NCBI RefSeq assembly: GCF_030013595.1
Contig: NZ_CP122768.1
DNA length: 64,000 nucleotides
Source: Escherichia coli
GTDB taxonomy: Bacteria > Pseudomonadota > Gammaproteobacteria > Enterobacterales > Enterobacteriaceae
Strand: one strand, 5' to 3'
Position 1 is the first letter of the stretch. Every line of letters starts with the position of its first letter. This document shows positions 2,453 to 57,590 of the stretch, piece by piece. The notes below the pieces were generated by a model, which did no database searches, had not been told where the DNA came from, and saw only the letters and a list, made by a program, of their open reading frames with translations. The position numbers were made by a program, and so were the translations under genes.

Positions 2453-3775
2453 TTATTCACTGATACGACGATAGACAGTTGGTGTGCTTTCCGGTGCTTT
2501 ATCGGCAAGTTTAATTGCCGCTTTCACCGCTTTAGCCGCTTCCTGCCAGCTGTTTTCGTCTTTCGCGTGGATAACCGCCAGCGGACGCTGACCGTCTACC
2601 TGGTCGCCCAGACGCGCCATATCAGTAAAGCCGACGCTGTAATCGATGGTGTCAGATGCCTGACGGCGTCCGCCGCCCATTGCAACCACTGCCATCCCCA
2701 GCGCACGGGTATCCATTTCACTGACAAAACCTTCGGTATCAGCATAGACTGCTTTCGTCAGCATCGCTGTCGGTAGATACTTCGCGTAGTTCTCAACGAA
2801 GTCAGTCGGGCCTTTTTGTGCCGCTACCATACGACCAAAGACTTCTGCCGCTTTACCGTTGTCCAGCACCGCCTGCAATTTCGCGCGCGCTTCGGCGTCA
2901 TCTTTCGCCAGTTTGCCGGAGATAAGCATCTCTACGCACAGCGCCATCGTGACATCAAACAGACGCGGGTTACGATACTCACCCGTCAGGAACTGCACCG
3001 CTTCACGAACTTCAACCGCGTTACCTGCACTGGAGGCCAGTACCTGATTCATATCGGTGAGCAGCGCGGTGGTACGCACGCCAGCGCCGTTAGCCACGCC
3101 AACAATCGCTTCGGCAAGGGCTTCAGAGAGTTCGTAGGTCGGCATAAACGCGCCGCTACCCACTTTCACGTCCATCACCAGCGCGTCCAGACCTTCCGCC
3201 AGTTTCTTCGCCAGAATAGAGGCGGTGATCAGCGGGATGGAGTCCACGGTTGCGGTAATATCACGGGTCGCGTAGAAACGTTTATCCGCCGGAGCCAGTG
3301 AGCTGGTCTGGCCGATAATCGCCACGCCGACGTCTTTAATAATTTCGCGGAAACGGTTGTCATCCGGGAAAATGTCGAAGCCAGGGATGGATTCCAGTTT
3401 GTCGAGCGTACCGCCAGTATGACCGAGGCCGCGACCGGAGATCATCGGAATATAGCCGCCGCAGGCTGCGACCATCGGCCCCAACATCAGCGAAGTCACA
3501 TCGCCGACGCCACCGGTGGAGTGTTTATCAACAATTGGGCCATTCAGATGCAGGCTTTTCCAGTCGAGAACGGTTCCTGAATCTCGCATCGCCATGGTCA
3601 GCGAGACACGCTCAGGCATTGTCATATCGTGGAAGAAAATGGTCATCGCGAGAGCGGCAATCTGCCCTTCGGAGATAGTGTTGTCGCGAATACCGTTGAT
3701 AAAGAAACGAATTTCTTCATCGCTCAGCGCATGACCATCACGTTTTTTACGAATAATTTCTTGTGCGAGAAACAA
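2453..3775 (-). CDS. deoA: thymidine phosphorylase
   Basis: Translation (M)[24 protein letters not shown] matches DeoA; TTG start at 3775-3773 preceded by GGGAGG; 440 aa. Confidence 0.92.
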
Positions 3776-3852
3776 GGTAACCTCCCGTGGAAAAGAGACG
3801 AGGTAATCGGGGAACCGGATGAGCATCGCTGCGTCATCCGGCAAATCAAGCC

Positions 3853-4632
3853 TTAGTAGCTGCTGGCGCTCTTACCGTCGCCGTGGCCCAGAGCCTTCAG
3901 CAGGCTTGCCAGCAGGCTGGAAGCGCCAAAGCGGTAGTGACGCGCATCGGCCCAATCAGCGCCGAACAGTTCATCGGCGATGGCGAGATATTTCTGCGCA
4001 TCTTCCGCAGTACGCACGCCGCCCGCCGGTTTGAAACCAACGGTTTTTTCTACGCCCATATCACGGATCACTTCCATCATGATGCGCGCGCTTTCCGGCG
4101 TCGCGTTCACTGCCACTTTACCGGTAGAGGTTTTGATGAAGTCAGCACCCGCTTTGATGGAGATTTCAGACGCTTTACGGATCAGCGCTTCGTCTTTCAG
4201 TTCGCCGGTTTCGATGATCACTTTCAGCAGTACATTCGCTGCCGCACAAGCATCTTTACAGGCTTTCACCAGGTCAAAACCAACCTGCTCGTTACCTGCC
4301 ATCAGCGCACGGTACGGGAACACTACGTCAACTTCATCGGCACCGTAGGCGATTGCCGCACGGGTTTCTGCCAGCGCGATGTCGATGTCATCGTTACCGT
4401 GTGGGAAATTAGTTACCGTAGCGATACGGATTTCCGGGGTGCCCTGCTCTTTCAGCGTTTTGCGAGCAATCGGGATAAAGCGAGGATAGATACAGATAGC
4501 GGCGGTATTGCCGACCGGAGTTTTGGCCTGATGACACAGAGCAATTACTTTCTCGTCGGTGTCGTCGTCATTCAGGGTGGTCAGGTCCATCAATTTCAGT
4601 GCACGCAGGCTGCTTGCTTTCAGATCAGTCAT
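3853..4632 (-). CDS. deoC: deoxyribose-phosphate aldolase
   Basis: Translation [29 protein letters not shown] matches DeoC; ATG at 4632-4630; 259 aa. Confidence 0.95.
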
Positions 4633-10565: not shown

Positions 10566-12152
10566 TTAATGCTCGCGGGTCTGGTGGAACTGAACGTCCG
10601 GATAACGTTCCTGCGCCAGACGCAGGTTGACCATGCTGGTAGCGATGTAAGCGAGGTTATCGCCGCCATCAAGCGCCAGTTGGCTTTCGTTCTTACGCTT
10701 GAACTCTTCGAATTTCTTCGCGTCCGCACATTCTACCCAGCGGGCAGTGGCAACGTTGACTGACTCATACACTGCTTCAACGTTGTATTCGCTCTTCAGG
10801 CGCGCTACCACCACATCAAACTGCAGCACACCAACTGCACCAACGATCAGGTCGTTGTTGGAGATCGGACGGAACACCTGCACCGCGCCCTCTTCGGAAA
10901 GCTGTACCAGCCCTTTGAGCAGCTGTTTTTGCTTCAGCGGATCTTTCAGGCGGATACGACGGAACAGTTCCGGTGCGAAGTTCGGAATACCGGTGAACTT
11001 CATCATCTCCCCCTGGGTAAAGGTGTCACCGATCTGAATAGTGCCGTGGTTGTGCAGGCCGAGGATATCGCCCGGATACGCTTCTTCAACGTGCGAACGG
11101 TCGCCCGCCATAAAGGTCAGCGCGTCGGAGATCACCACATCTTTCGCGGTGCGCACCTGGCGCAGCTTCATGCCTTTTTCATATTTACCGGATACCACGC
11201 GCATAAACGCCACGCGGTCGCGGTGTTTCGGGTCCATGTTGGCCTGAATTTTAAATACGAAGCCGGTAAATTTGTCTTCGCTCGCTTCTACGGTACGGGT
11301 ATCAGTCTGACGCGGCATCGGCGCAGGTGCCCACTCCACCAGGCCATCCAACATATGATCGACGCCGAAGTTACCTAGCGCAGTACCGAAGAATACCGGA
11401 GTGATTTCGCCCGCAAGGAATAATTCTTTGTCGAACTCGTTAGACGCGCCTTTCACCAGTTCCAGTTCGTCACGCAGCTGCTGCGCCAGATCTTCACCAA
11501 CCGCAGCATCGAGATCCGGGTTATTCAGCCCTTTAACAATGCGGACTTCCTGAATGGTGTGGCCTTTACCACTCTGATAAAGATAGGTTTCATCTTTATA
11601 AAGGTGGTAAACGCCTTTAAACAGCTTGCCGCAGCCAATCGGCCAGGTGATCGGCGCACAGCCGATTTTCAGCTCGTTCTCAACTTCATCGAGCAGTTCC
11701 ATCGGGTCGCGGATATCACGGTCAAGTTTGTTCATAAAGGTGAGGATCGGCGTGTCACGCAGACGGGTAACTTCCATCAGCTTGCGGGTACGATCTTCAA
11801 CACCTTTTGCGGCGTCGATAACCATCAGGCAGCAGTCCACCGCCGTCAGGGTACGATAGGTATCTTCCGAGAAGTCTTCGTGCCCCGGGGTGTCGAGCAG
11901 GTTAACCAGGCAATCGTGATACGGAAACTGCATCACAGACGTAGTAATGGAGATCCCACGCTGCTTTTCCATCTCCATCCAGTCCGACTTAGCGTGCTGG
12001 TTGGAACCACGGCCTTTTACTGTACCGGCGGTCTGAATGGCCTGTCCGAACAGCAGCACCTTCTCGGTGATGGTAGTCTTACCGGCGTCTGGGTGAGAAA
12101 TAATTGCAAAGGTTCTTCTTTTCGCTACCTCTGCGGCCAAAAGGCTTGTCAT
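10566..12152 (-). CDS. prfC: peptide chain release factor 3 (RF3); 5' end replaced by prophage attR sequence
   Basis: Translation [25 protein letters not shown]... matches PrfC; N-terminus here is [16 protein letters not shown] versus my recollection [17 protein letters not shown] for E. coli K-12, with the K-12-type 5' end found displaced at 57451-57501. Confidence 0.92.
12091..12104. repeat. attR core (direct repeat GGGTGAGAAATAAT)
   Basis: Identical 14-mer at 57437-57450; flanking sequence diverges between host and phage on each side. Confidence 0.65.
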
Positions 12153-12172
12153 AATTGTTGTCTCGTTGATTA

Positions 12173-12287
12173 TGTACAATCATATGTACAAAGAAAAATT
12201 CATGCCGCTGATTGTACATTTTGGAGGTATCAGAGCATAGCAGAACATGATCAGTAGGTGTATTTGTAGCCAAAGCTCATTTGTACA
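12173..12287. repeat. cluster of four TGTACA hexamers (putative integrase arm-type sites, attR arm)
   Basis: TGTACA at 12173, 12185, 12213 and 12282 in A/T-rich context just inside the prophage; similar cluster at the attL arm. Confidence 0.35.
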
Positions 12288-12306
12288 TGCCGCAATCTTC
12301 GTTCTA

Positions 12307-12356
12307 TTGACACTGTTTATTCACCCAGTTAAAAATAAGACTGTATACAAACACAG
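12307..12356 (+). promoter_or_regulatory. putative sigma70 promoter with LexA (SOS) box
   Basis: TTGACA at 12307-12312; CTGTATACAAACACAG (CTGT-N8-ACAG) at 12341-12356, immediately upstream of the dinI-like ORF. Confidence 0.6.
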
Positions 12357-12371
12357 TATAGAGGGAATTTT

Positions 12372-12591
12372 ATGCGTATTGAGATCTGCATAGCCAAAGA
12401 GAAAATGACTAAACTGCCAAACAGCGCTGTGGATGCGTTAGAAGGAAGAATTAACCCGACGCACCGGTAAGCGTTATGAAGATGTAGAGGTGATCGTAAA
12501 AGCCACCAGCAATGATGACCTTTCTGTTACACGCACCGCCGATAAAGATTCAGTTAAAATTTTTGTTCAGGACACTCTGAAAGATACCTAG
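12372..12591 (+). pseudogene. DinI-like protein gene, apparently frameshifted
   Basis: Frame 1 gives [23 protein letters not shown] then stops at 12468; an overlapping frame continues [49 protein letters not shown] to 12591; together they resemble DinI. Confidence 0.6.
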
Positions 12592-12644
12592 GAATTTGCT
12601 GACGAGTGATTTAGTTCATCATCTCTGGACACAATTCACTTGTA

Positions 12645-12673
12645 TTGACTTTAAGATCATTAAATTGTAATAA
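12645..12673 (+). promoter_or_regulatory. putative promoter of the membrane-protein/RT operon
   Basis: TTGACT at 12645-12650 and a TG-extended A/T-rich -10-like element about 17 bp downstream; AAGGA Shine-Dalgarno before the ATG at 12683. Confidence 0.4.
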
Positions 12674-12682
12674 TTCAAAAGG

Positions 12683-13387
12683 ATGGGGCAGTTTTTTCCT
12701 CTTGCGTATGCAAGGGCGGCTCTGATAATGAACAGTAATATTTTACTGTTGAGCTTATGCTCACTGATCCTGCCGAGCAGGATGTTCAACGGTTCCAATA
12801 TATCCTGCCCCTTCCGCTTTTTAAAAGGATATTTTATGCATGAAAATATTTGGTTTACATATAAAGCCCGTATTCAAGCGCACCATAGACTAGAATGGCT
12901 TGAAAAACACTCTCAATTTATCCTCGTTTGGTATGCTATATTGAGTGCGGTACTTTCAATTATAACGTTACGATTTCCAAAATTTCTAGGAGATAATACA
13001 GATATCGTTGCGGCAATACTTTCAGTGGCTCTACTGGGTATTTCTCTGATCGTATCTAACCTAGATTATCGTGGTCGAGCAATAGCCATGAGAAGGAATT
13101 ATATTGCACTACAGAGACTCTATTTTGATATTAATAACGGCCAACAGTTAACTCTTGAACAGAAAGAAAAATATTTTAATTTGCTCAATGAGGTTGAGAA
13201 TCATCGTGACATAGATGATAAAGTTTCAAGGGTAACTCAAGTTGGACTTACGACTAGACTCCCCACACAAAAAGAAAAAATAATTGTTAAATTATGGATA
13301 TTACGTCGAATGTTTATTACTGTCGGCCTTTATATCCTCCCATTAATATGTCTTTGGATTGACTATGAATGCAAGCAGAGTTTTTAA
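12683..13387 (+). CDS. multi-helix membrane protein, partner of the reverse transcriptase
   Basis: 234-aa ORF with hydrophobic segments (ILLLSLCSLILPS, FILVWYAILSAVLSIITL, IVAAILSVALLGISLIVSNL, ITVGLYILPLICLWI); overlaps the RT gene; alternative start at 12836 also has an SD. Confidence 0.7.
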   Translation: MGQFFPLAYARAALIMNSNILLLSLCSLILPSRMFNGSNISCPFRFLKGYFMHENIWFTYKARIQAHHRLEWLEKHSQFILVWYAILSAVLSIITLRFPKFLGDNTDIVAAILSVALLGISLIVSNLDYRGRAIAMRRNYIALQRLYFDINNGQQLTLEQKEKYFNLLNEVENHRDIDDKVSRVTQVGLTTRLPTQKEKIIVKLWILRRMFITVGLYILPLICLWIDYECKQSF

Positions 13388-14735
13388 AAAGTCATTCTCG
13401 AAAAAAAACCTTCTAAAAGTATACAATGAAAAAATCAAAGAATCAGGAGCGATTGGCATAGATCGGATTCGTCCATCAAAACTTGATTTAACAATAAAGA
13501 ATGAGATCACTTTTATTTTTGAAAAGGTTAATTGTGGAAATTATAAATTTACAGCATATAAAGAAAAATTAATATCTAAAGGGGCTAACTCTATCCCCAG
13601 ACAGATTTCCATACCAACTGCCAGGGACAGAATTACCCTTAGGGCTCTCTGTGAATGCCTTACAGAAATATATCCTAACTCCAGATTAAAACTACCACAT
13701 ACAGTAATTGACTTATTGAAAAATGCATTAAACAGCGATCTATATGCTGAATATGCAAAAATAGATCTCAAAAGTTTCTATCCTTCAATTGAACATAAAT
13801 TGATATTTAATGCAATAAAAAATAAGATTAGAAAAAAAGAAATTAGGCAGTTAATAACATCATCATTAATCGTGCCTACTGTAAGTGGAAGTACAGGAAG
13901 CAAAGGTGTCCCTAATAATACCAGAGGAGTACCTCAGGGGTTAGCAATATCAAACATTTTAGCTGAAATATCACTATCTGATTTCGACAATGAAATCAAT
14001 AAAATGCATGACATATGGTACATGCGATACGTTGATGACATTCTTATTTTAACGCAAAAAGATCAAGCAACAAAAATTGCATCTCATATCATTGATAAGC
14101 TTCAATCATTAAATTTAAACCCACATCCATTAAATGAAGAGAACTCAAAATCCAAAGTAGGCAGCTTGGATGAAAGTTTCAACTTTTTGGGCTACCACAT
14201 AAAAAATCGAGAATTATTGATAAAACATGAGAGCATTCTTAGATTTGAGTCATCCTTAGCAAAAATTTTTACTGCATATAGACACGCTCTACTACAAGCT
14301 AAAAATAAGCGCGATAAAGAACGAGCTGTTGCATATTGTCAGTGGAAACTAAATCTTAGAATTACGGGGTGTGTGTTTGAAGGTAAACGATTGGGATGGG
14401 TATCGTACTTCTCACAAATAACGTCAACAGCTCAACTTCGAGCTGTTAATCATACGATCAATAATCTTATCCGCCGATTCGGCCTTTCATCAGAAATAAA
14501 ACCAAAGTCTTTGATTAAAACTTTCTATGAACTCCGCAGGGGTAGAGCGGAGACTTTTAAATACATACCTAACTTTGACAATCTACATATATCTCAGAAA
14601 CGAGAAATTGTTTCTATGTGGATAGGGAAAGAGAATGAAAAAAAACTTAGCAATAGTGAAATAGAGAGAAAATTTAAATTTAAAATTGCGAAATCAGTAA
14701 AAGAGCTTGAAGAGGACATTTCAGGGATATCATAG
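13365..14735 (+). CDS. reverse transcriptase (Abi/retron-like, family unassigned)
   Basis: RT motifs in canonical order: KIDLKSFYPSIEH, GVPQGLAISNILAEISL, YMRYVDDILIL, FNFLGYHI, plus a ~170-aa C-terminal extension; ATG at 13365 (TTG at 13359). Confidence 0.88.
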   Translation: MNASRVFKKSFSKKNLLKVYNEKIKESGAIGIDRIRPSKLDLTIKNEITFIFEKVNCGNYKFTAYKEKLISKGANSIPRQISIPTARDRITLRALCECLTEIYPNSRLKLPHTVIDLLKNALNSDLYAEYAKIDLKSFYPSIEHKLIFNAIKNKIRKKEIRQLITSSLIVPTVSGSTGSKGVPNNTRGVPQGLAISNILAEISLSDFDNEINKMHDIWYMRYVDDILILTQKDQATKIASHIIDKLQSLNLNPHPLNEENSKSKVGSLDESFNFLGYHIKNRELLIKHESILRFESSLAKIFTAYRHALLQAKNKRDKERAVAYCQWKLNLRITGCVFEGKRLGWVSYFSQITSTAQLRAVNHTINNLIRRFGLSSEIKPKSLIKTFYELRRGRAETFKYIPNFDNLHISQKREIVSMWIGKENEKKLSNSEIERKFKFKIAKSVKELEEDISGIS

Positions 14736-14847
14736 ATATGTAATCCATTAAATCCTTTATATATAAAGCAATAAACACACTATTTAAATTCACAAATCAG
14801 CCGCAGTATCCTGCCATGACAAGTTGCTGCGGCATATCACAAAACGA

Positions 14848-15432
14848 TTACTCCATAACAGGGACCGCAGGCCACTCAATATCAGGTGCAGTTGATGTAT
14901 CAACACGGTTCAGCAACACCCGATACTTTTTCCAGGCTTCCAGCAATGAGTTTTCTTCCTCCGTTGCGATTTCCAGATCTACAGCATCCTGAAGTGGCGC
15001 AATATGCTCACTGGCTACCTGCATCAGGTTGTTTTTTGTTTCTTCCGCCTCCCGGATCCGGAACAGTTTTTCTGCTTCCGTATCCTTCAACCAGGCTGTG
15101 CCGTTCCACTTCTGATATTCCCCTTCCGGCGATAACCAGGTAACATTTTCCGGTAACGGACCGAGTTCAGAAATAAATAACGCGTCGCCGGAAGCCACGT
15201 CATAAACCGTTTTACCCCGATGATCTTCAACGAGATGCCACGATGACTCATCACTGTTGAAAACAGCCACGAAGCCAGCCGGAATATCTGGCGGTGCAAT
15301 ATCGGTACTGTTTGCTGGCAGACCTGTATGAGGCGGAATATATGCGTCACCTTCACCAATAAATTCATTAGTTCCGGCCAGCAGATTATAAATTTTTATG
15401 GTCCGTGGTTGTTCACTCATTCTGAATGCCAT
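14848..15432 (-). CDS. tfa: tail fiber assembly protein
   Basis: 194-aa translation [37 protein letters not shown]... matches lambda Tfa as recalled. Confidence 0.92.
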
Positions 15433-18400
15433 TATGCAAGCCTCACAATATAGTTAAATGCGATGTTTTTGACGGTGTTTTCCGCGTTACCAGCAGCGTT
15501 AACGGTGATGGTGTGTCCATGTGAACCAATCGCAACGGAGTGCGTGTGTGCACCAATACCGACAGTATGTGCGTGTGCACCTGCAGATGCTGCTGTGCCG
15601 GACAGTGAGTGGCTATGGTTACCATCTGTACTGGTATTAGCTAACGCCCCCGTAGACATACCTACTGAGCCTTGTACACCCCAGGTATTTTGACCTGAGC
15701 TTGTATAACCATATTGATAAGTATCTTTAAAAACACTGGGGTTAAATCGACGGCCATCTCTATGGCTGTGATTACCAGCTGCATTCGTGCTGCCACTTAA
15801 ACTATGGGTATGCGCACCAGTGTTATTCGTGGATTTAGTGCCGTAATCAAACGACGATGTGGTTTTCGTCCCCAAATCAGTACTGGATGCGCTGGCGCTG
15901 TGGGTATGCGATTTTATGCCGTCCTGTTCCTGAGACAATACGGCACGACCACTGGCGGGCTTGCCCTTAATCGTCCAGCCACGCATATCAGGGATCACGC
16001 CTGACGGATAAGCGGCTGCAAGTTTCGGGTAGGCAGATTTGTCAAAAGTCTGCCCCTGCATCAGGGCATAACCAGACGGAACGGTATCTGATGGCCACGG
16101 AATTGGTGCGCCAACTGGGTAGCTTTCTGGTGGAAGATTTTTCGAGGTATAAACTTCTGCCCAGCCTTCCTCAAAACCATAGCCATCTCTTGAGGAACGG
16201 TAGAACAGACCTCCATTTCTGTAATGCGCCTTCATCTGCAGGGTCCGGCAACTTCCGACTCCGGTATAGAAGTTAACCAGAATATAGCTGTCGCCAGAGC
16301 GGGTGACATTGTAAGCGCCTGATTCGGCATTCCAGGGAACGCCACCATCCGCATCGGCATATGTATCCGTTGCCCTTCTGGCAAAAGCAGCCACATGCGC
16401 GGCGGTTAAAGTAATATCTTTTGAACCATCAAACTCAACCCCAGAAACCAGTCTTGGCGTTTGCAGCTTTGTTGCTGTCAATGCGTTACCGTTCAGACTT
16501 GCAGACAGTTTGGTTCCAATAACCAGTTCGCCGGTTGCGTTATCAATAGCAAACGGTCTTAATGTATTCCAGCCACCATAAACATCACCTTGATTGGTAA
16601 GCAGCAGGTAAGTTTTAGCGCCATCATTACGCCATAATGCCCCATACTCCCCACCTATCATTCGAATCTGATTACCACCACGCGCTACAATTTCGTCTGT
16701 GGCAAAAAGTTTTTTGCACGACAAGTTATCGTTAACGATTAACGAATGGGACTCATAAAAACCACGCCCACTCTTAAAATCAAGGATAACGTCCGCCGCG
16801 ATACATTCAGTCGCCGGATTTGTTGCCCCAAACTTATAGGTCGTATCATTAACAACGAGATCAGCACCAGGTGCGGATATTGACAGGCCATCTTCGATAA
16901 ACGCAAAAACAGGGAAAGCAGCGCCATCAACATAGAACACAGAGCGCAAATCATCGCCCTTATTACTCATCATTATTGAGTGGATGGCTCGTTCATTGTT
17001 TTGATATTGCCAGAACATTCCATAAGCATAACGCCCCCTGTCAGTCCAGCCACCAGGCATAACAAATCCGTTAAACTCGCAGTTATTCATCGGATCGCCT
17101 GCGGTTCTCGTTGCCGTGGTGATAATGACCCTTGATGCCAGTTCGCTTACTGAGCCAGCAGAACGCATAACAACAACAGGGTAATATTTTCCAGATGTTG
17201 CACCTGCAGGAGCGTTAACCCGCACATAACGCATACCACGCTTATCAGCAAAGTCTGTTTTACTGACCGCGTTAATGTTGTTCAGGAAGCGTCCCTTATC
17301 GGGTATATCAGCGCCGTTCTGGTCTTTCTGCAGACGTTTCTCTGCATTGTCATAGGCTGATTTTACTGCCTTTGGCGTTGCCGCCAGCGTTTCAGACGAA
17401 CTGTTGGTCGCACAGCTGAGCTGTACTATCCCCTTTTTCGTCGTACTTGCATCCTCAAGCGCCACGGCGGATGCAATATCCTCTGCCCGTTTTGCCGCTG
17501 TCTCGGCGCGCGTTGCCGCGGATTCCGCCGTACTTTTGCTCTGTGCTGCCGCCGTCGCACTGCCAGCTGCCTCTGTCGCCTTCGTGGATGCTGTCGTGGC
17601 GCTGCCCTTCGCTGCGGACGCTTGTCTGGTCGCCTCATCTTTTGAAGCAGACGCCGATGATGCCGATGACGCCGCCGAACTGGCGGACGATGCAGCTGCC
17701 ATTTTTGAGGATTCTGCGCTGGTTTCCGACGCTTTCGCGTTCGTCTCGGATGTCTTCGCTGCGGAAGCAGACCTCGCTGCTGCGCTGGCCTGTTCAGTGG
17801 CTTCGCCAGCCTTCGTTGTGGCTGTTGAAGCAGACGATGCGGCACTTTCTGCCGATTTTCCGGCGGCGGTGGCACTGGCTGAGGCCTGCCCGGCACTTGT
17901 TGACGCGGCACTGGCAGACGACGCAGCCGCTGTTTTTGAGCCTGCCGCAGCCGAGGCGCTCTGTCCCGCTGCCGTTTCAGAAGACCTGGCGTTTGTCTCA
18001 GACGTCTTTGCCGCCTTCGCGGAATTGCCTGCCGCCGTTGCCGAGGAAGCGGCACTACTGGCGCTTGATGATGCGTTCGTTTCTGATGATTTCGCTGCCT
18101 CTTTTGAGGCCGCCGCATCCCGGGCTGAGGTGGCTGCTTCTGACGCCTTCGTGGTCGCGGCGGATGCAGAAGTTGCTGCTGATTGTTGTGACGCTGCCGC
18201 ATTCGTTTCTGACGTTTTCGCCGCAGCGGCACTGGTAGCTGCCGCGCTTTTTGAGGACTCTGCAGCAGCAGCACTTTTCGATGCTTCACTGGCCTTTGTT
18301 GATGCCGTTCCTGCGCTGGAAGATGCTGACTGAGCCGACGACGCGGCCTGTCCGGCTGACGTGCTGGCTGCGCGTGCTGAGCCTGCAGCATCAGTCGCAT

Positions 18401-18836
18401 GGGTTGCCGCCTCACGGGCTGATGTGCAGGCATCGCTGGCTGACTTCTTCGCGGCTGCCGTGTTCTGTGCCACCGCGGACGCGTTACGCGCCACCTCTTC
18501 CACCATCAGTTCAAAACGGCGCAGTGCCTCAGGACGGGCATCATCCTCCGTCATGGCACCGAGAAAATCATTCAGCGTACCGGGTCGGGAATCTTCATAC
18601 ACGGTGATGGTCCCGGCATGTGACGGCGGGAATCCCTCCACCAACAGAATAACGCTGTACTGCCCGTACTCAACGTCCATGCTGTAACGCCCGGCTTCAT
18701 CCGGATTTTCTGAGGCCAGCGTGTTCACCACCACCGTGGTGCTGTTACGTTTTGCTTTCAGCTGGATTGTGCAGTTCTGTACCGGTTTTCCTGTGCCGTC
18801 TTTCAGTACACCTGAAATCTTTACTGCCATATTCAC
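15432..18836 (-). CDS. stf: side tail fiber protein
   Basis: N-terminus [26 protein letters not shown] as in lambda Stf; long Ala/Ser-rich repeat region; C-terminal HxH repeats (GAHTHS, GNHSHS, GAHAHT, GSHGHT) and NYIVRLA end. Confidence 0.9.
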
Positions 18837-54025: not shown

Positions 54026-55726
54026 TTATTTAGGTACGCTATCAACACTTTTGAGAATCGTTGATGTTAAAGGCTGCGACTTTAGTAAGTCTCGAGAAAT
54101 ATCCGGATCTGGTATAGCTATTTTTACTAAACTCTCAAGTTTTTCAAACCACTCCCCATCATTCATTGAGAATAAGTTATGAAGAGCTTCATTTTTATTT
54201 TTGAACCCCCAAGCCTTATAATTATTACCACAGTATTTTGACGCAGCAGTTAGAATATGCCAGCGTAATTTTGAATACTTCCCATCAAACCTCTTATTTG
54301 AGATAAGAGCCTTTAGCCTATACAAGCAATAGCAAGATATATAATAATCATCCTCGAGGGCATCGGAAGAGAAAACCTCATTAAGTAAGTCACCAGTTAA
54401 CCTATTTGGATAACGACTGGAATAATCTGGTCTCATCATAACAATAGCAGCATATGCTCGCGCAACTTCTCTGATATCAAATATGCGTACTGGAGCTATA
54501 CTTTCTGAACTATACTGCCCCTTTCTTCTCTCAAAATAAATTTTATTTCCTTCAATAGCACCTTTAGCATTAAAATAATGTTCTAATTCCCTTAATTTTT
54601 TTAGCGTTGAAATGAACTGTGCATCTTCAACTTTAGATTGTCTATTCGTAGCTCGTACAATGTCATCAAGGATCGCTGGCTCATCGGTTTCAATTAATTT
54701 AATCATTAAACTAACTGATTCATCTACTTGAATGTCTTTTGATATAAGAACATTAGACGTTTGACATCCATTAACAATTTGAAAATCTCGTATAAAAATT
54801 TCTTGCCCTGCAGGCCTCACGCTTGATGCAACTATTGTCACTCCATTATTCATTAAACCAAATCTTGCTTTTTTTCCATCAGTATCTAGTGTTCCTGCAA
54901 TTTCTGAATTTACGTCACCATCAATTCCCAGAAAATCTCTAACATTTTCTTCGAATAATTTTTTTCGAGGGTTTCCATTTTTGTCTTTAAGTATAGAATC
55001 AATAAAACTACGAGCTTTGACTGTAGCTACATAGGCATTATTAATATTAGGGGCCGCTGGGAATGGAGCATAGCCTATTGTAGGAAGTTTAGCTTCTATT
55101 GGACCTTCCGCAGCAAGCCAAAGCTCATGAATCATGTCTTTGTGAGCCATAATGAAGGATGTTTCATGTGAAAACCCGAGTGACTTTAAGCTTTTTTCAC
55201 CCGATGCAAATGCAGCTTTTATTTCTCTGGCCTCTGTATTTTGTGCAGCACTAAAAAAATATGCGTATAAGTCTGGAAGGCCATTTTTGACTCTGCCGAT
55301 ATTAGCAAATATCAAGTTGAACATTTTTTTAAAGTCCGCTAGATATTCACTGTGGGGTTGTTGTGGCGCTGGTGAAAGATAATCTCTTATTGACGCAATG
55401 TAAGAGTCTATTTCCTGTTTGCTCCACTTCTCCGATGACTTAGCTTGCGTGAATACTAATGAAACTTGAAACTCGCGACGTGAGTTTTGGAAAATCTCCT
55501 GAAGTTCTTCAGTTGAAAAAATGGCTCTGTCGTCTAAAAATAAAAATGCTCCATCAATACCAGGGTCCGGGCCTTCATACACAAGATCACTGACCTCAAC
55601 TTTGTCGCCTGAGTATTTTGAAAAAGCACAATAGTTCACAAACGCCTCAAAATTTTTGGTCTCCTCATAGGGCGCAGCGAATGCTTTGCAAAAGGCATCG
55701 AAATAAGATTTCGTGACTAAATGCAT
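54026..55726 (-). CDS. AIPR-family abortive-infection-like protein (tentative)
   Basis: ~566-aa AT-rich ORF between AlpA-like gene and integrase; FQIVNGCQT motif as I recall for AIPR proteins; ATG 55726 preceded by AAAGGAG. Confidence 0.6.
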   Translation of the reverse strand: MHLVTKSYFDAFCKAFAAPYEETKNFEAFVNYCAFSKYSGDKVEVSDLVYEGPDPGIDGAFLFLDDRAIFSTEELQEIFQNSRREFQVSLVFTQAKSSEKWSKQEIDSYIASIRDYLSPAPQQPHSEYLADFKKMFNLIFANIGRVKNGLPDLYAYFFSAAQNTEAREIKAAFASGEKSLKSLGFSHETSFIMAHKDMIHELWLAAEGPIEAKLPTIGYAPFPAAPNINNAYVATVKARSFIDSILKDKNGNPRKKLFEENVRDFLGIDGDVNSEIAGTLDTDGKKARFGLMNNGVTIVASSVRPAGQEIFIRDFQIVNGCQTSNVLISKDIQVDESVSLMIKLIETDEPAILDDIVRATNRQSKVEDAQFISTLKKLRELEHYFNAKGAIEGNKIYFERRKGQYSSESIAPVRIFDIREVARAYAAIVMMRPDYSSRYPNRLTGDLLNEVFSSDALEDDYYISCYCLYRLKALISNKRFDGKYSKLRWHILTAASKYCGNNYKAWGFKNKNEALHNLFSMNDGEWFEKLESLVKIAIPDPDISRDLLKSQPLTSTILKSVDSVPK

Positions 55727-55982
55727 AAAAACTCCTTTCTGAAATAAGATAAGTTTATTAGAAACAACAAGATAAAGATAAAGATAATAGTAATACAAGT
55801 TAAAGACATACTGCATCACATAAGTTGGTCAAGATCAATAAATCAATAAGGATCCCCTATGTTTTATGTATTGTTGATAATTCTATCACCTCTTACTTCT
55901 GGTCTAAGCGTAACCTACTCAAGAATGCCATTGAAAATGTCCACTGTTCGCTCAAAACAGACTGTCAGGGCTACGCAAGCTG

Positions 55983-57206
55983 TCAGGTAGATTCTGGGCC
56001 AGTACAAGTAACGATCGATTCAACTCTCTCCCACCATGCCTGATATGCTTTACGCTGTTCTTCTAGATAATCGCTCTTGTCATAAACCTGCCAAACCCCT
56101 GGCAGTTTATGGCCGAGCATTATTTCTGCAATATGAGGAGCAGTAAGATCAGAAAAGTTTGTTCGTGCTGTTCGCCTCAAATCATGAAGAGACCAATGAG
56201 GGAATTGATGCCCCAAACGCCTCCATGCGTACTGCATTAAATTGTAAGGCAGCGACTGCAATGATGTTCGACCAACGGGTTCCCTGCTTCCTTCCTTAGT
56301 AAAAAGCATATCGGAACCATTGTTCATAGAGATAGCGTTCTTTATAAGCTCCTCCACCGGTTCAATAATGGGCCTCTTTAGCGGTTCGCCTGTTATCTCT
56401 CCAGTCTTATGTCGTTCTGGTGGTACAGTCCATACCTTATTAATGAAATCAAAATCGCCCACCCTGGCAGTAATTAGCTCTGAACTACGGCAGCCAAAAT
56501 GCAGCAATAGCTTAATGAAGGCCCGGTATTTAGGAACCATTCGAGAACCATCGATCGCAGAATAAAGGATTTTAATTTCATCATGTGTCAGAAACCGTTT
56601 CTTCTGACCTTTACGGATATCCATATCTTTACCCGTGATATCCGACAGCGGGCGAGTTTCAATGAGCTTTCTCTTATACGCCCAGACATGGGCCTGCTTT
56701 GCGTTAATTAGCAATCGGTCTGCTATTGCTGGAGTCTTAGTGCTAAGAGGCTCCAGGACTTCTAACCAATCATGCAATGTAGCTGCATCGTGAGGGATAT
56801 TCCCGATTTTAGAGAACAGGTGCAGCTCAAACGAGCGGAGTATCTGTTCAGAACCTTTTTTATTTTTTACACAATATGCTTCATACCAGGCACGGATCAC
56901 AGACTCTACCGTCATGGCTTCAGTAGCTTTTCGTTTTTCAGCCTGCTTGACCAATCGTGGATTACGGTTTGACTCAAGTTCACCACGGAGACGGATAACT
57001 TCTTCTCTGGCCTCTTTTAATCCAGTTGCCGGGTAAGTTCCGATATCAAGACGCTCACCTTTCCCTGCCCATTGATAACGATATTGGAACACTACGCGAC
57101 CTTTCGGTGATACTCTGACAGACAGACCATCACGATCGGATTTAACCAAAACCTTATCACGTTCCTTTCCAACGACTGAACGCAACCACGCATCAGACAA
57201 CGCCAT
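55983..57206 (-). CDS. int: tyrosine integrase (P4-like, N-terminal arm-binding domain)
   Basis: 407-aa ORF; N-terminal LSVRVSPKGRVVFQYRYQWAGKGERLDIGTYP; catalytic-region motifs LHDLRRTARTNF and IMLGHK. Confidence 0.9.
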   Translation of the reverse strand: MALSDAWLRSVVGKERDKVLVKSDRDGLSVRVSPKGRVVFQYRYQWAGKGERLDIGTYPATGLKEAREEVIRLRGELESNRNPRLVKQAEKRKATEAMTVESVIRAWYEAYCVKNKKGSEQILRSFELHLFSKIGNIPHDAATLHDWLEVLEPLSTKTPAIADRLLINAKQAHVWAYKRKLIETRPLSDITGKDMDIRKGQKKRFLTHDEIKILYSAIDGSRMVPKYRAFIKLLLHFGCRSSELITARVGDFDFINKVWTVPPERHKTGEITGEPLKRPIIEPVEELIKNAISMNNGSDMLFTKEGSREPVGRTSLQSLPYNLMQYAWRRLGHQFPHWSLHDLRRTARTNFSDLTAPHIAEIMLGHKLPGVWQVYDKSDYLEEQRKAYQAWWERVESIVTCTGPEST

Positions 57207-57225: not shown

Positions 57226-57272
57226 GCAAAACACCTCTGCTGTTTTGTACATTATGTACAAGCATATGTACA
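57226..57272. repeat. cluster of four TGTACA hexamers (putative integrase arm-type sites, attL arm)
   Basis: TGTACA at 57226, 57246, 57255 and 57267, between the int start and the attL core. Confidence 0.35.
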
Positions 57273-57436: not shown

Positions 57437-57450
57437 GGGTGAGAAATAAT
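57437..57450. repeat. attL core (direct repeat GGGTGAGAAATAAT)
   Basis: Identical to 12091-12104. Confidence 0.65.
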
Positions 57451-57501
57451 GGCAAAAGTGCGGCGCTTCGCCACCTCTTGCAAATAAGGAGACAACGTCA
57501 T
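57437..57501 (-). pseudogene. displaced original 5' fragment of prfC
   Basis: Minus strand reads ATG ACG TTG TCT CCT TAT TTG CAA GAG GTG GCG AAG CGC CGC ACT TTT GCC ATT ATT TCT CAC CCC = [22 protein letters not shown], then diverges into phage sequence with a stop. Confidence 0.75.
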
Positions 57502-57590
57502 AATTCTTTCTTCTTGAGTAAGCGGCATCGCGCCGCGCTTGTTGAAAACGAAAAATTGCGGCTATTTTACCCATCAACGGGGGGAGGCAA

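Follow-up and report, generated by a model that had tools for sequence, protein, structure and literature searches.

A prophage-borne reverse transcriptase and membrane protein pair of Escherichia coli is a copy of the DRT10 anti-phage system, very probably a complete one, with a variant cDNA template

Introduction

At one end of a prophage in the window, the 64-kb stretch of Escherichia coli DNA analysed here, a reverse transcriptase (RT) gene overlaps a gene for a membrane protein. The original prediction saw in this pair an unassigned family and a candidate novel defence system, which raises the question whether the locus is new or a copy of something known. DRT10, composed of a UG17 RT, a SLATT-5 protein and a non-coding RNA (ncRNA), was characterised in three papers of 2025-2026 as producing cDNA by protein-primed, telomerase-like tandem-repeat synthesis, and both tandem-repeat cDNA and phage defence dependent on RT, SLATT and ncRNA were shown in homologues (PMC12632851; bioRxiv 10.64898/2026.04.29.721553; bioRxiv 10.64898/2026.06.29.735271). 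Here we show that the pair is an already known system, a copy of DRT10, and not an unassigned family. Judged from its sequence, the region 12645-14735 very probably holds a whole DRT10 anti-phage system (UG17 class-2 defence-associated RTs) with SLATT-RT architecture, a natural allele colinear with Eco3DRT10 and carried as prophage cargo.

Results

The reverse transcriptase belongs to the UG17 class

13365 to 14735, plus strand: UG17 (DRT10) RT, 456 aa (PADLOC RT_UG17, Pfam RVT_1, landmark residues, RefSeq WP_000994250.1)

The RT comprises 456 aa from the ATG at 13365, or 458 aa from a TTG at 13359. As predicted for this open reading frame, the canonical RT motifs were found in order (AKIDLKSFYPSIEH, GVPQGLAISNILAEISL, YMRYVDDILIL and FNFLGYHI), with YVDD at residues 222-225 and the Pfam RVT_1 domain at residues 79-281 (E 1.6e-20). 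PADLOC profile searches placed the protein in UG17: RT_UG17 matched residues 3-458 over positions 1-429 of its 429 model positions (E 8.4e-159, 527 bits), with Drt3a as the runner-up model at E 1.4e-37. The thumb and C-terminal domain contain R371, K385 and Y388. DRT10 requires a hydroxyl residue (Ser or Tyr) at the extreme C-terminus together with an intact YVDD, and the window RT has both; its C-terminus reads ...EEDISGIS, and the terminal serine, Ser456, is kept in all seven distant RT homologues fetched. By analogy with these systems Ser456 may be the priming residue.

That the gene represents a different RT element, namely a retron, a group II intron, an Abi-type RT, DRT2 or DRT3, is extremely improbable. 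Several such models gave sub-threshold scores: the group II RT/maturase model TIGR04416 139.9 bits (cutoff 300), Drt3a 112 bits (cutoff 200), retron_St85_RT 62.9 bits (cutoff 235) and Drt2 75 bits (cutoff 390), and the closest solved structures to the RT are group II intron and retron-type RTs. (A search of the PDB by sequence for a DRT10 RT chain and a DRT10 SLATT chain found neither.) However, all these scores lie far under the curated cutoffs, including the equivalog cutoffs of Drt3a and Drt2, while RT_UG17 reaches its 527 bits over the full length. Reclassification as a group II intron had been considered in the original prediction, but the GIIM maturase domain was not significant (E 0.13) and neither a group II intron RNA nor a retron RNA was matched by Rfam in 12200-14900. 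The sole inverted repeat near the genes is the closing stem of an RNA that matches a DRT10 covariance model, as described below.

The membrane protein is a SLATT-5 effector of 183 aa

12836 to 13387, plus strand: SLATT-5 family membrane effector, 183 aa (PADLOC RTasSLATT, NCBIfam SLATT_5, RefSeq WP_000545005.1, hydropathy)

The partner protein matched the PADLOC profile RTasSLATT, for RT-associated SLATT (E 2.4e-57), and NCBIfam SLATT_5 with 132 bits against a curated cutoff of 60. Its gene directly adjoins the RT gene and is tightly coupled to it: the stop at 13387 lies within the RT gene, giving an overlap of 23 nt, as had been estimated. A membrane protein with three to four helices and 234 aa had been proposed; the membrane character and three hydrophobic segments (residues 25-48, 54-78 and 153-177 by hydropathy) stand, whereas the length and the fourth helix do not. 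Profile matches begin only at residue 51-53 of the 234-aa frame, the RefSeq CDS starts at 12836 and yields 183 aa, and stop codons break the frame upstream of 12836 in all seven distant homologues as well as in sister alleles of E. coli. We therefore reject the 234-aa protein, whose first 51 codons are translated ncRNA gene, as is its fourth hydrophobic helix. The ATG at 12836 is preceded by AAGGA at a distance of 8 nt. In the window allele the ncRNA gene by chance forms an open frame continuous with SLATT, and a reading based on open reading frames is misled by this.

Both proteins assign with high confidence to the characterised DRT10 (RT_UG17 8e-159; SLATT_5 132 bits against 60), and the claim of an unassigned family is therefore refuted by the measure that the original prediction had itself set. 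The features it had listed as unusual, a membrane gene in first position, coupled overlapping genes, an RT of 456 aa and the lack of a1/a2 repeats, are standard for DRT10 (UG17-A). Its reading as a prophage abortive-infection module with an RT and a membrane partner was right in kind, since the locus is prophage-borne and pairs an RT with a SLATT protein of an anti-phage system, but not in calling the family novel.

A structured ncRNA precedes SLATT

12645 to 12674, plus strand: sigma-70-like promoter of the ncRNA (TTGACT, 18-nt spacer with TG, AATAAT)
12681 to 12817, plus strand: DRT10 ncRNA, 137 nt, five stem-loops (folding, covariance model, covariation)
12681-12691 paired with 12805-12815, plus strand: SL1
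12699-12716, plus strand: SL2
about 12717-12730, plus strand: Loop A
12731-12750, plus strand: SL3
12751-12762, plus strand: SL4
12767-12783, plus strand: SL5
12784-12804, plus strand: Loop B

The reading as a two-gene module misses the essential ncRNA, over whose gene (12681-12817) the membrane protein had been extended. A structured RNA of the size known for DRT10 (about 137-143 nt) lies immediately 5' of SLATT. Folding gives it a minimum free energy of -54.2 kcal/mol (z -5.3 relative to shuffles), and a covariance model for which only seven loci from outside E. coli were used (Photorhabdus, Pseudomonas, Stutzerimonas) found 12679-12821 on the plus strand as its sole match in the window (101 bits, E 1.4e-25). 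Compensatory changes and covariation support the five helices: the share of paired cells is 95.7% and falls to about 50% if the partners are slid, and in 13 pairs both sides have changed. The 3' strand of SL1 in E. coli was one column out of register in the MAFFT alignment and was corrected in the model-guided alignment. A further hairpin proposed by RNAalifold in the template loop (helix 6) was rejected, being 69.7% paired and without real covariation.

SL1 is an 11-bp closing stem (GGAUGGGGCAG / CUGCCCCUUCC) that had been overlooked when flanking inverted repeats were reported absent. It belongs to a DRT10-type ncRNA and is not a retron a1/a2 pair. The ncRNA gene has no RefSeq annotation and no Rfam 15 family; scanning 12200-14900 with Rfam 15 at E up to 1 returned only a chance match to the bantam miRNA.

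The promoter-like element that had been noted is borne out as sequence. It agrees with the consensus at 10 of 12 positions in addition to the TG extension, is invariant across five aligned E. coli alleles and would be expected to be active. The ncRNA start site is predicted at G12681; with this 5' end, 7 nt downstream of the promoter, all the published Eco3DRT10 landmarks fall in register.

The module is colinear with Eco3DRT10

Published Eco3DRT10 has overlapping SLATT and RT genes, a 456-aa RT ending in S456 and a 137-nt ncRNA. The window shares with it the order ncRNA, SLATT, RT and the gene overlap (Tang et al. 2025, PMC12632851; Ramirez et al. 2026, bioRxiv 10.64898/2026.06.29.735271), the RT length with YVDD, R371, K385, Y388 and the terminal priming Ser456 at the same numbering, and the ncRNA length with five stem-loops. 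The comparison was made through published landmarks, from which we infer that Eco3DRT10 is the allele with template CAAUGAUUC. U15, U43, G44, U62, G86, G104, U105-106, C107, G111, C116, A117, U119 and A120-U123 occupy identical positions in the ncRNA, and the anchoring features of Eco3 are all present (R371 with G104, the G86-G104 pair, K385, Y388, a 2-nt 5' linker and a 4-nt 3' linker). Among the landmarks checked only two differ, through the natural template substitutions U110C and A112G.

Sister alleles at the same prfC-prophage position carry exactly CAAUGAUUC-CAAU, the published template. Relative to the clade with this template the window has four further ncRNA substitutions (positions 12, 25, 27 and 96) and about 22 RT and 18-20 SLATT amino-acid differences. 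The DRT10 dataset of Tang et al. (Table S1) includes an identical SLATT sequence (UG17_locus_928 and 986) with a near-identical RT.

A variant template predicts a different cDNA repeat

12787 to 12795, plus strand: template (A-B segment, C107-C115), CAACGGUUC; register and boundary from published Eco3DRT10 data
12796 to 12799, plus strand: realignment segment A' (C116-U119, CAAU); positions conserved, role published for Eco3DRT10

In Eco3DRT10, protein-primed initiation takes place at C116 and the RT halts at C107, a boundary set by the SL5/G104 anchor. The A-B-A' arrangement typical of DRT10 templates is present in the window as CAA(C)-GGUUC-CAA(U) at 12787-12799, 3 nt 3' of SL5, and A-B-A' patterns occur at the same place in the template loop in all seven distant homologues and in the sister alleles. 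Exact A-A' identity amounts to 3 nt (CAA) in the window allele compared with 4 nt in the published template; the fourth position would form a dG-rU wobble. The window template CAACGGUUC differs from the tested template CAAUGAUUC, which gives the repeat GAATCATTG, by U110C and A112G. Because of these two substitutions the predicted product is (GAACCGTTG)n with a 9-nt period and the unit 5'-GAACCGTTG-3', and not (GAATCATTG)n. CAACGG is common to the templates of the window allele and of Pseudomonas homologues. Among complete E. coli genomes the window form of the template is present in 153 of the 187 carriers and the published form in 34, and the variant occurs with both SLATT/RT protein clades.

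Through the same substitutions a competing repeat arises, GUUC-AACG-GUUC, whose period is 8 nt. The product of the majority allele could thus differ in more than its sequence, through a shifted register within the same DRT10 system in which GUUC (104-107), AACG and GUUC (112-115) yield (CGTTGAAC)n or an imprecise mixture, although we regard this as unlikely. No exact A-B-A' pattern in Loop B of the window allele is longer than GUUC-AACG-GUUC, and in published work cryptic re-annealing sites lowered the precision of Eco1DRT10 and changes to the linker could re-scale the repeat. However, the published 5' boundary is geometric: copying ends at C107, which lies two nucleotides away from the G104 anchor, and G104 forms a Hoogsteen pair with G86 and is bound by R371, all of which are conserved in the window. 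Use of GUUC as A would need U106, U105 and G104 to be copied. In addition, a published mutation of the fourth base, U110A, was tolerated and simply changed the repeat.

The module is cargo of a prophage in prfC

12091 to 12132: prophage attachment-site repeat in the prfC 5' coding region (comparison with the empty K-12 site)
12372 to 12591, plus strand: DinI-like pseudogene with a frameshift, lying between DRT10 and the prophage end (annotated as such by RefSeq in IAI39, where the stretch is identical)
14848-15432, minus strand: tail-fibre assembly gene
55983-57206: integrase
57437-57478: partner attachment repeat, adjoining the integrase

The host element is a lambdoid prophage of roughly 45 kb inserted in prfC. 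DRT10 lies at its tail-fibre end, between the tail-fibre assembly gene and the prophage end beside prfC, which agrees with the predicted location between this gene and attR. The empty K-12 site (bases 3438-3479 of L015) matches both window ends; the two copies of the attachment repeat are not identical throughout but share an exact core of 14 nt, GGGTGAGAAATAAT. A 22-nt near-repeat (12169-12190 / 57251-57272), extended by eye from a k-mer 11-mer, was rejected as the att core, as the K-12 empty site puts the duplication at 12091-12132 / 57437-57478. The prophage has defence cargo at either end, with an AbiU-like gene beside the integrase in addition to DRT10 on the tail-fibre side.

GC content is 34% in the module compared with 54% in prfC, and the module is present in 187 of 5426 complete E. 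coli genomes. In this work it was met only in prophages and genomes; a blastn search of the INPHARED phage collection with the whole module gave no match.

Decay does occur at this locus, as indicated by the DinI-like pseudogene, whose counterpart is intact in other strains, and by IS1 and IS5 insertions that disrupt the module in some strains. The window copy might accordingly be DRT10 by descent that has lost defence, for instance through weakened A-A' homology or SLATT substitutions, and the 22 RT and 18-20 SLATT changes relative to the presumably tested clade would fit such a loss. We consider this very unlikely. Both open reading frames are intact and full length, YVDD is intact, and every functional residue and RNA landmark checked is kept. 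In 74-77 complete genomes the allele is conserved to at least 99%; most carriers of the module have its form of the template, which recurs as CAACGG in Pseudomonas, and 3 nt of A-A' homology were enough in published truncations.

Discussion

Defence, cDNA synthesis and SLATT toxicity would be expected of the window allele by analogy with homologues 95% (RT) and 90% (SLATT) identical to it. On the steps demonstrated by others for Eco3DRT10 and relatives, the promoter at 12645-12674 would drive the 137-nt ncRNA, which would act as scaffold for two RT monomers. The Loop B monomer would begin DNA synthesis at the hydroxyl of its own Ser456 opposite C116 and copy the template to C107, where the SL5/G104-R371 anchor would stop it. 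The nascent 3' end would then melt off and re-pair with A' (C116-U119), and the cycle would repeat. The product would be single-stranded tandem repeats of kilobase length, which the RT would make constitutively and which host ExoI (SbcB) would keep in check. During infection one homologue is triggered by an SSB-like protein of the phage, and a change in the state of the cDNA may release or activate the SLATT effector so that infection is aborted. The two groups that have published on this contradict each other as to whether infection raises or lowers the cDNA.

Compared by description, the UG17-A DRT10 E3659 of Escherichia sp. (Sanchez-Nieto et al. 2026, bioRxiv 10.64898/2026.04.29.721553), for which SbcB-controlled toxicity and the SSB-like trigger were shown, is likewise a tripartite ncRNA-SLATT-RT system with a basal stem closing the ncRNA and a template flanked by short repeats. 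It differs in its 143-nt ncRNA with six predicted stem-loops, its template ACUUAUUACU with the 7-nt repeat AGTAATA, its RT of 445 aa and its SLATT of 186 aa. DRT9 (UG28) and DRT2 (UG2), also class-2 UG RTs, produce repetitive ncRNA-templated cDNA in phage defence as well. DRT9 is protein-primed too, and its ncRNA fold reportedly resembles that of DRT10, but it is a hexamer that makes poly-dA from a poly-U template with tyrosine as the priming residue, and SLATT is not obligatory for it, whereas DRT2 builds a gene by rolling-circle copying. The window RT scored 1.3e-24 with PADLOC Drt2 and 2.9e-18 with Drt9, against 8e-159 with UG17. Telomerase (TERT and telomerase RNA) offers a functional analogy according to Tang et al., with a short internal template, A', a structured boundary element and repeat-addition processivity; it differs in priming from the chromosome 3' end and not from a serine of the protein, in its size of about 1100 aa and in serving genome maintenance rather than phage defence. 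An evolutionary link between the two is a claim of Tang et al. (PMC12632851).

The standard PADLOC profiles of 2023 already recognise both proteins and the mechanism was worked out on a near-identical allele, so that for a screen of new systems this finding is to be closed. What the locus adds concerns, among other things, variation within DRT10: the template used in the experiments belongs to the rarer allele of E. coli, and, if the variant template is active with both protein clades, this natural variation would argue that SLATT does not read the repeat sequence.

The RT and SLATT genes

Two overlapping plus-strand ORFs lie within an AT-rich island (GC 34% vs 54% in the adjacent prfC). As the original prediction had it, the downstream ORF carries the RT motifs in order, and Pfam RVT_1 matched its residues 79-281 significantly (E 1.6e-20); the 23-nt overlap of the two genes and a promoter-like element of their own were likewise recovered.

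12645-12674, promoter-like site with a TG extension
13365-14735, + strand, RT ORF of 456 aa counted from the ATG

In profile searches of both proteins, the entire PADLOC RT_UG17 model was covered by the RT (E 8.4e-159; second-best family Drt3a, 1.4e-37), while the Group II RT/maturase, Drt3a, Drt2 and retron models scored far under their respective cutoffs against it. The upstream protein was identified as an RT-associated SLATT by profile match (E 2.4e-57) and reached 132 bits with NCBIfam SLATT_5, whose curated cutoff is 60. A UG17 RT together with SLATT-5 constitutes DRT10, characterised by Tang et al. 2025 (PMC12632851), Sanchez-Nieto et al. 2026 (bioRxiv 10.64898/2026.04.29.721553) and Ramirez et al. 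2026 (bioRxiv 10.64898/2026.06.29.735271), and the DRT10 dataset of Tang et al. contains an identical SLATT sequence paired with a near-identical RT. The RT/SLATT module therefore is a known, mechanistically characterised system, DRT10. The original prediction, by which a confident assignment of both proteins to such a system would make the module known rather than new, was right about the kind of system but not about an unassigned family or its novelty.

The ncRNA gene in front of SLATT

DRT10 is tripartite and needs an ncRNA of 137-143 nt just 5’ of SLATT, as established in the published DRT10 work. Read mechanically from 12683, the upstream ORF has 234 aa, the length first proposed for the membrane protein. 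This length does not hold: 12683-12835 is non-coding, since both SLATT profile matches begin no earlier than residue 51-53 of this ORF, the RefSeq CDS starts at 12836 and gives a SLATT of 183 aa, AAGGA is located 8 nt 5’ of the ATG at 12836, and the frame 5’ of this position is broken by stop codons both in sister alleles of E. coli and in each of the seven distant homologues. The open frame across the ncRNA, fused to SLATT (12683-12835, +), was found only in the window allele. It is opened by a T/A difference at 12820-12823 (TTTTTAAAAGG vs TTTTAAAAAGG), where sister alleles have a TAA stop, and this single difference thus produces the spurious 234-aa ORF.

A structured RNA occupies 12681-12817. 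Its fold consists of a closing stem around four stem-loops, and 21 nt stay single-stranded as a loop just before that stem’s 3’ side (minimum free energy -54.2 kcal/mol, z -5.3). A covariance model whose input was only the upstream regions of seven non-E. coli loci, fetched from Photorhabdus, Pseudomonas and Stutzerimonas (RT identity 58-62%), gave a single match when the whole window was searched, at 12679-12821 (+; 101 bits, E 1.4e-25). Standard pairs filled 95.7% of cells in an 11-sequence model-guided alignment, compared to 47-57% with partners slid, and changes on both sides were present in 13 pairs, with support for all five helices. A hairpin proposed within the template loop was without support in the same alignment and was rejected. 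The DRT10 ncRNA has no RefSeq annotation and no Rfam 15 family.

Comparison with Eco3DRT10

Eco3DRT10, the experimentally studied E. coli representative, is published as overlapping SLATT and RT genes, a 456 aa RT with the C-terminal priming serine S456, and a 137 nt ncRNA with five stem-loops. Its template is C107-C115 (CAAUGAUUC, copied into (GAATCATTG)n) with C116-U119 as the realignment segment A’, and initiation occurs opposite C116. R371 binds the G86-G104 pair, the linkers are U105-U106 and A120-U123, U43 and G44 belong to Loop A, the closing stem SL1 is contacted by K385 and Y388, and U15 and U62 are situated within poly-U tracts. When the RNA start was set at G12681, 7 nt past the -10 box, all these landmarks fell at the same numbers in the window, except for two natural substitutions, U110C and A112G. 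Strains K_EC180, MS20654 and 510016 carry alleles with exactly CAAUGAUUC-CAAU at the same chromosomal site. On these landmarks, the window module is a colinear allele of Eco3DRT10. Against the clade with the published Eco3DRT10 template, 6 ncRNA positions differ, as do 22 residues of the RT and 18-20 of SLATT.

Expected cDNA synthesis

In close homologues, published work shows two RT monomers scaffolded by the ncRNA. The monomer at the template loop (Loop B) primes with Ser456 opposite C116 and proceeds as far as C107, synthesis being halted by the anchor of the preceding stem-loop SL5; the 3’ end of the cDNA then pairs anew with A’ for another round, yielding kilobase-long single-stranded tandem repeats. 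This synthesis is constitutive, toxicity is prevented by host ExoI (SbcB), and defence requires SLATT; a phage SSB-like protein is the trigger for one DRT10 homologue.

The window template CAACGGUUC would be copied into (GAACCGTTG)n. A-A’ identity is CAA, and a dG-rU wobble would form at the fourth position. A published U110A mutant kept defence with just an altered repeat, and 3 nt of homology proved enough in published work. U110C and A112G also generate GUUC-AACG-GUUC, which could set a repeat with an 8-nt period instead, but this register is unlikely because it demands read-through into the G104 anchor, which is conserved. Besides the expected (GAACCGTTG)n, the ~10-nt abortive product that the second RT monomer copies from Loop A (Ramirez et al., bioRxiv 10.64898/2026.06.29.735271) would be formed here as well. 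Loop A (12717-12730) is conserved in the window, including U43 and G44.

Prophage context

Set against the empty site of K-12, the prophage is bounded by imperfect repeats with an exact 14-nt core, one at 12091-12132 within the prfC 5’ coding region and the other at 57437-57478. DRT10 lies ~550 nt in from the prophage end that is away from the integrase, which confirms the predicted position between tfa and attR. A frameshifted DinI-like gene precedes it, and a tail-fibre assembly gene is convergent with it.

12372-12591, + strand, DinI-like gene between prophage end and DRT10; frameshifted in the window and in IAI39 (an E. coli with the identical module), intact (249 nt) in other strains
15432-18836, - strand, tail-fibre ORF
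40535-40609, - strand, tRNA-Gly(TCC) gene inside the prophage
41027-41878, - strand, AraC-family regulator inside the prophage, most like YdeO and GadX, well under equivalog cutoffs
54026-55819, - strand, 597-aa ORF adjoining the integrase
55983-57206, integrase

At the insertion in the prfC 5’ coding region (12091-12152) the prophage provides a replacement N-terminus differing from that of K-12, and the displaced original 5’ end persists near the integrase side (57437-57510). The 597-aa ORF gave a full-length match to PADLOC AbiU (E 2.8e-111) and a weak AIPR/MzaE-like one. It is another defence gene of this prophage, at the end away from DRT10. IAI39 has a different gene in its place. The tail-fibre ORF includes a long Ala/Ser/Thr-rich low-complexity segment at 17250-18500 (GC ~0.62, AT skew ~-0.4), giving rise to long spurious ORFs in several frames. 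The tail-fibre region is unlike that of IAI39, yet the DRT10 module is identical.

Distribution and template variation

The module stretch is 100% identical in E. coli IAI39, ETEC-2265 and others, and among 5426 complete E. coli genomes, 187 have at least 80% of it. Some strains have a module interrupted by IS elements: IS5-family elements in AH21C082 and 21366, and IS1A inside SLATT in strain 510016 (3197-4525 of locus L005), where DinI and the ncRNA are also separated by an additional ImmA/IrrE-HTH pair. A genome scan also detected a short fragment in Edwardsiella piscicida ACC35.1 (2501-2647 of locus L014), with 96% identity to RT residues 298-346 only, possibly a module remnant in another genus.

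Counted by short exact-word searches of complete E. coli genomes, the window-type template CAACGGUUC (12787-12799) is present in 153 and the experimentally studied CAAUGAUUC in 34, which accounts for all 187 carriers. In strain WCHEC020032 the window-type template goes with the other RT/SLATT protein clade, so that both clades carry it, and CAACGG begins the template in four of five Pseudomonas homologues. On these comparisons, CAACGGUUC is probably the ancestral template, and template type is independent of SLATT type.
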